From assembly GCA_050177605.1 (NCBI GenBank), contig JBFXGX010000001.1, positions 1-46,465 on the forward strand: a stretch of DNA of 46,465 bases, written 5' to 3'. Within the stretch, counting starts at the first letter, position 1, and each line of letters begins with the position of its first letter. A program made the position numbers and the translations under genes. Positions 1-3,905 of this stretch are shown piece by piece. The stretch is from Candidatus Izemoplasmatales bacterium. Lineage in GTDB: Bacteria > Bacillota_I > Bacilli_A > Izemoplasmatales > Hujiaoplasmataceae. Under the pieces are notes generated by a model. It made no database searches and was not told where the DNA came from. It saw only the letters and a list, made by a program, of their open reading frames with translations.

Positions 1-28
1 TTAAAAAAAAGCCGATCAATCACAGAAT

Positions 29-181
29 TAGATGTTTGCATTTTTTACTCAAAAAAGAAAATAAAAAATGCCACCATCTACACAAAAGACATCTCTTATT
101 GCTTTTTTGCAATAAAAAATGCCCTTATCTCATGCGAACATCCTTTATTTCCCCCTAGAAAATAAAAAATGCCCTCATCCC
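29..181. repeat. Three degenerate ~50-nt tandem units with exact core AATAAAAAATGCC (60-72, 111-123, 161-173), each part of an inverted repeat
   Basis: Read directly. Inverted repeats span 29-80, 88-123 and 136-174. Confidence 0.85.
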
Positions 182-199
182 TACTGTGAGATAACGGCA
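161..199 (-). terminator. Riboswitch expression-platform terminator (predicted ON switch)
   Basis: UGCCGUUAUCUC-ACAGUA-GGGAUGAGGGCA followed by UUUUUUAUU. The 5' arm includes the aptamer's 3' ligand-binding/P1 nucleotides. Confidence 0.8.
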
Positions 200-266
200 A
201 CTGGCTACCATCTTGCGAAGGCCCTATAGCTTTGCGTCACTAAGTTTCCCTAGTTTTGCTATTTAC
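195..266 (-). ncRNA. c-di-GMP-I (GEMM-I) riboswitch aptamer, A20 variant
   Basis: Minus strand reads GUAAAU-A-GCAAA-ACUAGG-GAAA-CUUAGU-GACGCAAAGCUAUAGGGCCUUCGCAAGAUGGUAGCCAGUUGCCG. It has the GEMM-I hallmarks GCAAA, a GAAA-capped P2, GACGCAAAGC and AGCCAGUUGCC. Confidence 0.92.
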
Positions 267-272
267 AAATTA

Positions 273-301
273 ATTATATCTTTTTCGTAAGAATTAGTCA
301 A
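273..301 (-). promoter_or_regulatory. Sigma-A promoter driving the riboswitch leader
   Basis: TTGACT (301-296), 17 bp, TATAAT (278-273). Predicted start near 266, the first aptamer base. Confidence 0.85.
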
Positions 302-308
302 TATAAAA

Positions 309-358
309 ATAAAAAGATGTTTAGAATTCGGTAAACGAAAAACTAAACATCTTTTATT
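309..358 (-). terminator. Intrinsic terminator after the CvpA-family gene
   Basis: Inverted repeat AAAAGATGTTTAG...CTAAACATCTTTT just after the stop at 360. Confidence 0.7.
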
Positions 359-359
359 C

Positions 360-1082
360 TTAAATAAAGAAATCAATCAATTGTTTTAAAATATTGTTAT
401 CATATAACCATTTAGATAATCTAAACTGATCGGTTCCAAGTTGCATATCCTCCGCTAGGAATGGTCCGATGGCATCATTAATTCCTGGAATGGTAATGAG
501 TAATGCAAGAATAAACAACAAGATATAGATTATGGCGGCAACTTTGACAAATCCGAATAATAGTCCAAAAATCTTGTCGATTTGTTTAATGATTGGTATC
601 GAAGTGATTAATTTTGCAAGTATTTTGAGGAAGAAAAAGACAATCATCGAACCAAAGAATAACGTAATGAAAGCAATCACTAACAAAGCTAGAGATGTGA
701 TTAAAGGTTCTACTGCTTGAATAATACTCATTGTTACTTGATTAAAATCAATACTTTCAACAATCCAATCCACCATAAAGGTTGGCAGGCTCATCCCATC
801 AAAGGCAGCGCGAACATTTTCAGGATTCAATGTCTCCCCAAACAAATCTGTTCGGCTCAGTAAATATTCACTTACTTTGCCACTGATTGTTTCGCCAATC
901 CAGCCATCTAATATATTTGCGAATGGTCTCGCAAGAATGATCGATCCTAGTAAGCCAAATATACCACTAGTCATTTCAACTACTTTTAATAAAAAACCAC
1001 TTTTCCATCCAATGACTAAGAAGATGATAACAACAACGACAATTGCAACATCGATAATTCCAAACATATTGAGTATGTTCAT
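360..1082 (-). CDS. CvpA (colicin V production) family membrane protein
   Basis: N-terminal IIDVAIVV..GWKSGF and C-terminal IDKIFGLLFG motifs; 4 hydrophobic segments. Confidence 0.8.
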   Translation of the reverse strand: MNILNMFGIIDVAIVVVVIIFLVIGWKSGFLLKVVEMTSGIFGLLGSIILARPFANILDGWIGETISGKVSEYLLSRTDLFGETLNPENVRAAFDGMSLPTFMVDWIVESIDFNQVTMSIIQAVEPLITSLALLVIAFITLFFGSMIVFFFLKILAKLITSIPIIKQIDKIFGLLFGFVKVAAIIYILLFILALLITIPGINDAIGPFLAEDMQLGTDQFRLSKWLYDNNILKQLIDFFI

Positions 1083-1104
1083 CTTATTTCCCCCCCTAAG
1101 AAAG

Positions 1105-2574
1105 TTATTGATTTTTCTGTTCTTCTAAGTAATCTTTATAAGTCAGTATCATTTTTTTAGCAGCATACACTTCATCAATTCTCGTGATTGGTGTATGATG
1201 CGGAGCACTTTTTAAAATCTCAGGATTCGATATTGCTTCTTGTGCAATGTCTTTCATCACACGAATAAACTCATCGATTGTTTGTTTAGACTCTGTTTCC
1301 GTTGGTTCAATCATGATTGCTTGATGGAAAAGGAGTGGAAAGTAAATCGTCGGAGCGTGCATTCCATAATCAAGAAGACGTTTCGCTACATCTAAGGTTT
1401 TCACACCAGTAGATTGATCAATCAATCCATCAAAAACACATTCATGCATTGAAAAACCTTTGATTGGTAAGAAATAATCATTCTCTAAAGCTTTTTGAAT
1501 ATAATTCGCATTCAGTACAGCATAAGGCCCAACTAATTTCAAATTTTCTCTACCCAAAGTTTTGATATAAGTTAACGCACGTACCCATACCTTGAAATTT
1601 CCAAGGAATGAAGATACAGAGCCAATCGCATCTTTGCTATATTCTAAATAATAAGAATCGTCTAGCTTTTTTACACGAGGATTCGGTAGTAAATGTGCTA
1701 AATGAGAAACAACCCCGACAGGACCGCTTCCTGGTCCACCACCACCATGAGGTGTAGAGAAGGTTTTATGAAGATTGATGTGAATGATATCAAATCCCAT
1801 GTCTCCTGGACGAGCAACGCCAAGAAGTGCATTTAGATTCGCGCCATCATAATAAAGTAATCCACCTGCATCATGTACTAAAGAAGCAATCGTAAGAATA
1901 TCACGTTCAAAAATACCAACAGTATTCGGATTCGTAAGCATGATCCCAGCTACTTCGTCATTTAATACAGCTTTTAAAGCTTCAATGTCGACAGTACCTT
2001 GTTCTGTAGAAGGAATCTCAATCACTTCCATACCACATACCGCTGTCGAAGCTGGATTGGTTCCATGAGCAGAATCCGGAACAATCACCTTCGTCCGTTT
2101 AAAATCTTTACGATCTTCATGATACTTTTTCATAATCATTAATCCAGTTAGCTCGCCGTGAGCACCAGCATAAGGATTTAAACTGAATTCATCCATTCCT
2201 GACAATTCAGATAATGAAGCAGATAATTCTTCTGCCATTTTGAGTGCTCCTTGTACTGATGATGCACTTTGTAACGGATGGATGTGATTAAAACCAGAAA
2301 ATGAAGCAATTTCTTCATTGATTTTCGGATTGTATTTCATTGTACAAGATCCAAGCGGGTAAAATCCATTTTCAACCCCAAAATTTTTCTTCGAAATATT
2401 CGTGAAATGACGAAGTGTATCTAATTCAGATACTTCAGGAAGTGATGGGGCTTCTTTGCGAAGTAAACCATCTAATTCACTCATTGAATAATCACTGTTG
2501 AATGATTTTGGTAGTTGATAGCCAACTCTACCACTAACAGACATTTCAAATAATAAGAGATCGTCTTTTACCAT
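1105..2574 (-). CDS. gcvPB: Glycine dehydrogenase (decarboxylating) subunit 2
   Basis: YPLGSCTMKYNP, SAHGTNPAS and PLP-lysine motif NLHKTFSTPHGGGGPG. Confidence 0.97.
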   Translation of the reverse strand: MVKDDLLLFEMSVSGRVGYQLPKSFNSDYSMSELDGLLRKEAPSLPEVSELDTLRHFTNISKKNFGVENGFYPLGSCTMKYNPKINEEIASFSGFNHIHPLQSASSVQGALKMAEELSASLSELSGMDEFSLNPYAGAHGELTGLMIMKKYHEDRKDFKRTKVIVPDSAHGTNPASTAVCGMEVIEIPSTEQGTVDIEALKAVLNDEVAGIMLTNPNTVGIFERDILTIASLVHDAGGLLYYDGANLNALLGVARPGDMGFDIIHINLHKTFSTPHGGGGPGSGPVGVVSHLAHLLPNPRVKKLDDSYYLEYSKDAIGSVSSFLGNFKVWVRALTYIKTLGRENLKLVGPYAVLNANYIQKALENDYFLPIKGFSMHECVFDGLIDQSTGVKTLDVAKRLLDYGMHAPTIYFPLLFHQAIMIEPTETESKQTIDEFIRVMKDIAQEAISNPEILKSAPHHTPITRIDEVYAAKKMILTYKDYLEEQKNQ

Positions 2575-3905
2575 GATAAGCCTCCTAATATTTGAACTAA
2601 ATGATCAATTTCAGCCTTTGTTCTTTTTTCTGTTACGGCGAAGGTAATCATATTTTCAAATTCCTCGCCTAAATGAGATAAAGACAACCCACCTAAAATT
2701 CCATTTTGTTTTAATACCTCATCAATTAGTTCATGTGGAATATGTGTATTAATCACAAATTCCTTTAAAAATGGAGCGTCAAAAGCAGGATAGAATTTTC
2801 CTGTTTGAAGCAATTGATGATATAAGTAATGTGCCCCCTCATAGGAGCGTTCATTCACTTCTTTTAATCCTTTTGGTCCTAATAAACTTAAATATACAGT
2901 GGTATATAAAGCCATTAAACTTTGGTTTGAACAAATATTACTATTTGCTTTTTCTCTGCGAATGTGTTGTTCTCTCGCTTGTAAAGTTAACACAAAAGCT
3001 CTTTTTCCTAAAGCATCATAACTGAGTCCACAAATACGACCAGGCATTTTACGAACATGTTTTTTAGTTGTGGCCATATAACCTAAGGTTGGACCACCAA
3101 AGGAGAGTGGCATTCCAAGGGCTTGACAATCACCTACAGCAATATCAGCCCCATCTTCACCAGGCGTTTTTAAAACGCCAAGTGTAGAAATATCTGCGTT
3201 TTCAATCAGTAACGCTCCTGCAAGATGTGCAAGGTTCCCAACTGGCTCAAAATCTTCTACTATTCCAAAATAATTAGGCTTTTGGACAATGACACCTGCA
3301 ACGCTTGAATCAATACTGTTACTTAGCGTTTGGATATCAATACACCCATTTTTTGAAGGAACAACTTCAACATCGATACCTTTAAAATGAGCATAAGTCT
3401 TCACTACTTCAATGAGGACAGGATTCACATTATTTGGAATTAAAACTTTATTCCTTTTTGTGATTGAACACGCCATAAACATCGCCTCAGCTGTGGCTGT
3501 GGTTCCGTCATACATTGAAGCATTAGAAACGTCTAACCCTGTTAATGTTTGAATCATCGATTGGTATTCAAAAATATAAGTTAGCGTCCCTTGCGCAATT
3601 TCAGGTTGATAAGGTGTATATGCAGTTAAAAATTCTTGTCTAGAAACAATTGAATTGATTACCGAAGGTTGATAGTGATCATAAAACCCACCACCAGCAA
3701 ATACGGTGTATTCAGTATTTTGTTTCGCTAGCGCACTAAAATAACGACGAATCTCTTCTTCCGACATACTTTCGTCTAAATTATATTCACCTTCGAATAA
3801 CACACTCGAAGGAATGTTCTTAAATAATTCTTTCGTTTCTTGAATGTTCAAGAAACTTTTCATCTCTTCAAGATCCACATCAGTGTGTGGAAAGTACTTA
3901 AACAT
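2568..3905 (-). CDS. gcvPA: Glycine dehydrogenase (decarboxylating) subunit 1
   Basis: EFLTAYTPYQPEIAQG, NASMYDG, LQAREQHIRREKANSNICSNQ. Confidence 0.97.
   Translation of the reverse strand: MFKYFPHTDVDLEEMKSFLNIQETKELFKNIPSSVLFEGEYNLDESMSEEEIRRYFSALAKQNTEYTVFAGGGFYDHYQPSVINSIVSRQEFLTAYTPYQPEIAQGTLTYIFEYQSMIQTLTGLDVSNASMYDGTTATAEAMFMACSITKRNKVLIPNNVNPVLIEVVKTYAHFKGIDVEVVPSKNGCIDIQTLSNSIDSSVAGVIVQKPNYFGIVEDFEPVGNLAHLAGALLIENADISTLGVLKTPGEDGADIAVGDCQALGMPLSFGGPTLGYMATTKKHVRKMPGRICGLSYDALGKRAFVLTLQAREQHIRREKANSNICSNQSLMALYTTVYLSLLGPKGLKEVNERSYEGAHYLYHQLLQTGKFYPAFDAPFLKEFVINTHIPHELIDEVLKQNGILGGLSLSHLGEEFENMITFAVTEKRTKAEIDHLVQILGGLSW

Follow-up and report, generated by a model that had tools for sequence, protein, structure and literature searches.

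At the left end of a 46,465-nucleotide stretch of DNA from a Candidatus Izemoplasmatales bacterium (the window), the minus strand encodes a leader that we read, with moderate confidence, as a cyclic-dinucleotide ON riboswitch in which three intrinsic terminators in succession, possibly four, draw on one strand, UGCCGUUAUCUC, as their common 5' arm. The sharing of this arm is well supported by the complementarities within the leader, by folds of transcript prefixes with and without the strand blocked, and by conservation and covariation in relatives. Termination at each U-tract, the ON direction, the kinetics of strand exchange and the identity of the ligand are the parts of the reading that we infer. 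The standard design of the lineage has two gates; judged by the leaders of related genomes, the window appears to hold a rare form of it with three to four.

A single aptamer is followed by four candidate terminator arms

The riboswitch aptamer recognized in the preliminary description is real: positions 270-193 of the minus strand match the c-di-GMP-I (GEMM-I) family RF01051 over model positions 1-87 (63.1 bits against a gathering score of 35, E = 2.5e-11), and the same match was recovered in a whole-genome search. A candidate sigma-70-type promoter, TTGACT-17-TATAAT, lies at 301-273 (minus) and agrees with the consensus at 11 of 12 positions, a consensus match only. Between this promoter and a Colicin_V-family (CvpA-like) gene (363-1082, minus) there is a perfect 13-bp inverted repeat (312-324 with 343-355), probably the terminator of that gene. 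Position 1 of the window is the contig end; hence the array may continue past it, and the regulated gene is not seen in the window. RF01051 has a single match in 1-3000 at E values up to 1. Since the leader breaks off at position 1, a further aptamer could lie past the contig end.

Downstream of the aptamer, a repeat search returned a 19-nt direct repeat in three copies (60-78, 111-129 and 161-179; identity 84-100%, spacing 51 and 50) and three inverted repeats (132-150/160-178, 85-102/109-126 and 29-47/62-80). The three GGCA repeats and their complementary arms, as well as the CGGC-U8 element at 14-3, had been picked out in the preliminary description, and all are present; the inverted repeats match the hairpins of what it called register B. 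Each unit of about 50 nt is made of a purine-rich arm ending in GGCA, then a U6-A-U2-4 tract, then an A-rich arm. The repeat GGCATTTTTTATT is above chance, with five copies in the 1.94-Mb, 34% G+C genome, all within its three RF01051 leaders. Tandem Repeats Finder made no call on the array at a score of 30 or above, from which we conclude that the units have diverged outside their arms and are not a recent clean duplication.

All four 3' arms are complementary to one strand, UGCCGUUAUCUC (199-188), within the shared 5' arm UGCCGUUAUCUC(ACAG) (199-184, minus), which pairs with each of them in prefix folds. The strand opens with five bases that form the conserved 3' end of the aptamer model, and a 13-nt inverted match, 92% complementary, joins the aptamer 3' strand at 187-199 to 120-132. 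On the minus strand, terminator 1 comprises the 3' arm GGGAUGAGGGCA (181-170) and U6-A-U4 (169-159), with a predicted duplex of -17.8 kcal/mol containing one G.G mismatch. Terminator 2 comprises the 3' arm GAGAUAAGGGCA (131-120, minus) and a U-tract (119-111), with a duplex of -18.6 kcal/mol. In terminator 3, with the arm GUGUAGAUGGUGGCA (83-69, minus) and a U-tract at 68-58, the part complementary to the shared strand is UAGAUGGUGGCA; its duplex (-16.6 kcal/mol) has a G.U at the place of the G.G in arms 1 and 2. A possible terminator 4, CUGUGAUUGAUCGGC (25-11, minus) followed by U8 (10-3), forms a bulged duplex of -13.7 kcal/mol with the shared arm and is the weakest of the four, with only five contiguous pairs to the shared strand. 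The bases 5' of each GGCA had been said to pair with the aptamer 3' end, and they do so as part of these duplexes. Units 2-4 carry no local copy of the 5' arm; each is a 3' arm and a U-tract only. Thus, of the earlier picture of one aptamer placed before serial terminators, the series of terminator-like units stands, but units 2-4 are not local hairpin terminators.

The A-rich arms, which we call release arms, are complementary to the base and U-tract of the preceding 3' arm. On the minus strand, release arm 1 (153-136) pairs with 172-157, that is, with the base of arm 1 and its U-tract (hairpin H1, -12.7 kcal/mol, z = -5.1 against shuffles); release arm 2 (102-89) pairs with 122-109 (hairpin H2, -14.9 kcal/mol, z = -7.0 against shuffles); and release arm 3 (50-29) pairs with 80-59, where a 19-nt inverted repeat is 89% complementary (hairpin H3, -20.2 kcal/mol).

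The array is not an assembly artefact of the window contig. Contigs from three sequencing runs cover 1-218: X1, possibly the source of the window; X2, which belongs to the same study; and X4, which belongs to a different one. These contigs exceed the part matching 1-218 by 25, 533 and 230 nt, respectively, and would therefore run past position 1. The X4 contig differs from the window by six other letters and five gaps. Two of its variants change G143 and G48 to A; both bases lie opposite U in release hairpins, and pairing is kept. Changes at 33 and 35, together with deletions at 25-29, may break the lower stem of hairpin H3. Low-depth contigs from an RNA library (X3) cover 57-218 and 1-80. One of them stops just past the third U-tract; contigs cannot show 3' ends, and DNA may be present in that library.

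Predicted folds place each new arm on the shared strand

At an intrinsic terminator, the stem must reach the U-tract, and when transcription stops the U-tract has not yet left the RNA:DNA hybrid. We computed minimum-energy folds of growing transcripts cut at each arm. At four of four sites the newest arm occupied the shared strand, adjoining its own U-tract, and the earlier arms and U-tracts were held in hairpins with the release arms. As a crude proxy for bound ligand, the aptamer through UGCCG was made unavailable to pairing. With the strand blocked in this way, the last 5-6 bases before each U-tract were unpaired in all four prefixes; the release hairpins appeared both with and without the block. 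Since a blocked strand leaves the arm bases unpaired and a terminator stem must reach its U-tract, an ON switch is predicted. A simple hairpin-plus-T terminator scan of 1-420 gave no sites, terminator 1 included. The stems at sites 2-4 are long-range in the prefix folds, those of arms 2-4 closing 50-170 nt, and with regard to their kinetics the hand-over from arm to arm is predicted but unproven.

The mechanism that we propose would run as follows. In the absence of ligand, the shared strand would be free to pair with 3' arm 1, forming a stem that adjoins the U-tract and stops transcription. A polymerase that leaks through would transcribe release arm 1, which would capture the base of arm 1 and its exposed U-tract in a hairpin; 3' arm 2, emerging beside its own U-tract, would then take over the shared strand. 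The same cycle of hand-over would be repeated for arms 3 and 4. With ligand bound, UGCC would be held in the binding pocket, no arm stem would reach its U-tract, and all gates would be passed. The net effect would be that each extra gate multiplies the leak down at little cost to the ligand-bound state.

The two-gate form is conserved and covaries in relatives

RF01051 is present in 54 of 61 related genomes. About 130 loci were fetched from the RF01051 matches listed (about 150 listed, 51 further), and at least 88 aptamers were located in them by a regular expression. An arm was counted when GGC plus a U-tract showed at least eight pairs to the leader's own aptamer strand. By this measure 11 of 88 leaders have no arm, 19 have one, 53 have two and five have three, so the two-terminator form is the norm in relatives and three-arm forms are rare. 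Of the five leaders with three arms, L020 and L023 contain runs of N, L070 has complete local hairpins rather than shared arms, and only L085 resembles the window. The two other leaders of the source genome are one with two units and one with one unit plus GGC-U8. A strict two-terminator pattern was found at 73 loci (one genome per species), of which 37 are titled Izemoplasmatales or Izemoplasma; the remaining loci mostly bear broad Bacillota, Mycoplasmatota or Tenericutes labels, and three have unrelated titles.

The complementarity of later arms to the aptamer strand was also seen at sites that had not been selected for it: 63 of 69 later GGC plus U-tract sites have at least nine pairs to their own aptamer strand, compared with 15 of 482 background sites of the same kind elsewhere in the source genome. 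In prefix folds of 58 leaders, the shared helix was found for arm 1 in all 58 and for arm 2 in 44, the fold at arm 2 lacking it in the other 14. For later arms, 56 of 58 free folds had the GGC paired; with the strand blocked it was unpaired in 46 of 58, and in 12 of 58 the base of the later arm was still paired despite the block.

In the release helix, the spacer duplex outperformed 95% or more of its shuffles in 49 of the 60 cases, with a median energy of -12.9 versus -6.1 kcal/mol, and a leader's own partner beat partners from other sequence classes in 52 of 55. For covariation we used a MAFFT alignment of 52 sequences chosen by arm complementarity, a choice that biases the counts for the arm 2 helix. 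In this alignment the release-helix pair 35-95 is AU in 25 sequences, GC in 20, GU in five and other in two; pair 36-94 is UA in 33, CG in 10, UG in five, AU in two and other in two. In total, 88.4% of cells in the release helix are paired, compared with 45-60% when the partners are slid, and its covariation score was reached by none of 500 shuffles. The release helix is backed by covariation, with clear compensatory change in the aligned leaders. Selection on RNA structure, which the preliminary description had suspected from the diverged arms, is supported. The expectation that relatives would carry the repeats with compensatory changes was borne out for the two-arm form, which is conserved and covaries; the three-arm form is rare.

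For the arm 2 helix, pair 14-118 is AU in 34 sequences, GU in 12, GC in six and unpaired in none, in an alignment selected on arm complementarity. At column 11, arm 1 makes a G.G mismatch in 46 of 52 leaders and arm 2 a G.U in 47 of 52. When partners were swapped, arm 2 formed 10.33 of 11 pairs with its own leader and 10.08 with other leaders (better in 35, worse in 20), a test of low power because the 5' arm hardly varies. The likeness of later arms to arm 1 may come from common descent. An energy ratchet, in which later arms bind ever tighter, was rejected: mean values were -13.9 kcal/mol for arm 2 and -15.0 kcal/mol for arm 1, and arm 2 was the stronger binder in 16 of 52 leaders.

Gates are arranged in other ways elsewhere in the group. 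In L070 (G008:C112:790-1330), each of the later units forms a complete local hairpin and has its own copy of the 5' arm; a 3' arm left free in such an array could pair with the 5' arm of the following unit and produce a true relay of the kind the preliminary description imagined. Tandem complete c-di-GMP-I aptamers also occur in relatives, four in G006:C6:94018-94441 and three in G032:C10:77844-78344, about 115 and 210 nt apart, so both ways of multiplying gates exist in the lineage.

Alternative explanations of the array

Of the alternatives to a shared 5' arm, the one that survives best, unlikely as we hold it, is that terminator 1 alone works and units 2-4 are leftovers of local duplications of arm plus U-tract, with little or no effect. 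The rarity of the three-unit form (5/88 leaders, two of them with N runs) and the weakness of arm 4 are consistent with it. So is the setting: the riboswitch is absent downstream of the Colicin_V-family gene in all seven relatives' loci read of the 12 returned, so the copy in the window looks recently acquired or duplicated. Idle leftovers, however, do not account well for what the units have kept. They have diverged outside their arms, yet every change within the arms preserves pairing to the shared strand (GGGAUGAG, GAGAUAAG, UAGAUGGU), the release hairpins differ at the top and still remain paired, and relatives in the group retain the two-arm form, with covariation.

The later units might instead act after transcription, as stabilizing or processing structures, as repeated protein sites, or as an ON-state lock that keeps arm 1 off the aptamer. 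That the release hairpins form in both predicted states fits such a role, and there is a precedent in Bc1 of Bacillus thuringiensis, whose second terminator, in the published account, affects translation and whose dual-terminator DNA is bound by a protein (PMC11218506). A stabilizer, though, needs neither complementarity to the aptamer strand nor placement beside a U-tract, and the frequency of that combination among later sites far exceeds the genomic background (63/69 versus 15/482), which makes this explanation quite improbable.

Very unlikely, finally, is the domino model of the preliminary description, in which each GGCA arm pairs either with the arm upstream (register A) or with the arm downstream (register B) and ligand flips the array from A to B: the arms are indeed mutually complementary in both directions, and relative L070 has complete local hairpins in its later units, but register A in units 2 and 3 takes its own U-tract into the stem, leaving only about six weak pairs (AUGUUC with GGGCAU) without it, and since the stem needs the U-tract itself, this register cannot act at the moment of decision. 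The folding of growing transcripts with the aptamer free or constrained, close to what had been suggested as a check, showed that blocking the strand unpairs every arm base. Register A never appeared; the newest arm paired long-range with the aptamer strand (-13.7 to -18.6 kcal/mol), and the register B hairpins were present with and without the block. Because of this placement of the newest arm and of the B hairpins, the terminators share one 5' arm in the shared-arm reading, and nothing topples.

Ligand and regulated genes

At window position 259 (minus), immediately 5' of the first aptamer stem, the unpaired base is an A, whereas the Rfam consensus calls for G (model position 11). Of the 88 aptamers from relatives, 76 also have A, among them those of all 53 two-arm leaders. 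In the Vc2 aptamer, G20 is described as a ligand contact that selects c-di-GMP over cGAMP, and C92 as pairing with one ligand guanine, with a picomolar Kd for the wild type (PMC6140456, in the text available). By our own mapping, model position 11 would correspond to Vc2 G20, in which case the window aptamer would not provide the required G, and C92 would correspond to UGCC of the shared arm. If position 11 is Vc2 G20, the ligand may be 3'3'-cGAMP, or both dinucleotides may be bound. With 17 GGDEF matches in the source genome, a signal of the c-di-GMP type is plausible. Two GGDEF-domain matches lie at 24957-26962 of contig C2, between the paralogous leaders at C2:15565 and C2:40847.

The gene regulated by the window riboswitch was not found in the assembly. 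Contig C18, the only candidate for an abutting neighbor, was rejected: its end shares just a 9-nt A-run with the window and lies in an unrelated gene, apparently a peptidase as read by eye. Used as tblastn queries, the paralogous pair of downstream proteins revealed no additional genomic copy, and when metagenome contigs were scanned for an exact pattern, the single match was unrelated and due to chance. The paralogous riboswitches on contig C2 precede, and by their position would control, proteins of 254 aa (L002:1728-2489) and 227 aa (L003:1708-2388). Each of these has an N-terminal hydrophobic segment, and neither matched a family in Pfam or NCBIfam. Three of the three-arm leaders in relatives (L020, L070 and L085) precede homologues of the 254-aa protein, as judged from N-termini.

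Relation to known riboswitches

The window shares its aptamer family with ordinary single-terminator c-di-GMP-I ON riboswitches, and as in these, terminator 1 overlaps the aptamer 3' end, so that ligand binding and terminator 1 would be mutually exclusive. Unlike them, it adds further 3' arms, U-tracts and release hairpins. The A in place of G 5' of the first stem, mapped by us to G20, is a likeness to the GEMM-Ib group, described as 3'3'-cGAMP-sensing or bispecific (PMC6140456, in the text available).

In literature searches that left most subscription journals outside their coverage, Bc1 was the sole relevant case of dual or tandem terminators in a riboswitch, and nothing was found on an Izemoplasma riboswitch or on c-di-GMP in Izemoplasma. 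Bc1 of B. thuringiensis (Liu et al. 2024) is described as one c-di-GMP-I aptamer with two terminators in one platform; T1 and T2 are local inverted repeats 28 bp apart, an arrangement that its authors call rarely seen, and with ligand T1 unfolds, T2 stays intact and there is no overall response (PMC11218506, in the accessible text). The preliminary description knew of no described case of one aptamer with a terminator array. Bc1, with one aptamer and two terminators, narrows that claim; what remains of it is that the Bc1 terminators are local hairpins. Compared with Bc1 as described there, the window likewise has one c-di-GMP-I aptamer and more than one predicted terminator in a single long expression platform, but its later units lack a 5' arm of their own and a conserved release hairpin stands between them. 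Because the later units are predicted to use the aptamer strand, all terminators of the window should be ligand-gated: whereas the Bc1 hairpins are portrayed as local and autonomous, blocking the strand in the predicted folds leaves the arm bases unpaired at sites 1-4.

Tandem c-di-GMP-I riboswitches are known from the triple-tandem Bc3-5 (PMC4759541) and from doublets and triplets surveyed in a review whose accessible text gives only repeated whole switches for this class (PMC9481103). The window resembles them, as they are portrayed in these sources, in placing serial gates in one leader, which is thought to sharpen or deepen the response. It differs in what is repeated: tandem riboswitches repeat aptamer plus terminator, but the window repeats terminator 3' halves only, with one aptamer in 1-3000.

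Discussion

A riboswitch that acts on transcription must decide once and within a short time, and its dynamic range is limited by terminator leak. The remedies known from nature duplicate the entire switch; if our reading is true, the window would gain each extra gate for about 50 nt and re-use its sensor. Such a design would be economical and easily copied in synthetic biology, and it would offer a natural, sequence-defined case of co-transcriptional strand displacement.

We put forward more tentatively, as a proposal that falls somewhat short of probable, that the window and its relatives represent an undescribed class of expression platform, a strand-exchange relay. One strand would be passed from arm to arm, with release hairpins using the previous U-tract as a toehold; one very slowly reversible binding event would be read two to four times, the number of units setting leak and threshold; and this would be the standard form of cyclic-dinucleotide control in a whole order of wall-less Bacillota.

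Many genomes conserve the two-gate form and show covariation in it, which supplies comparative work with a data set from the start. For the organisms themselves, members of a little-studied lineage, the leaders and the genes that follow them would place two surface-type gene families that lack annotation under cyclic-dinucleotide control.
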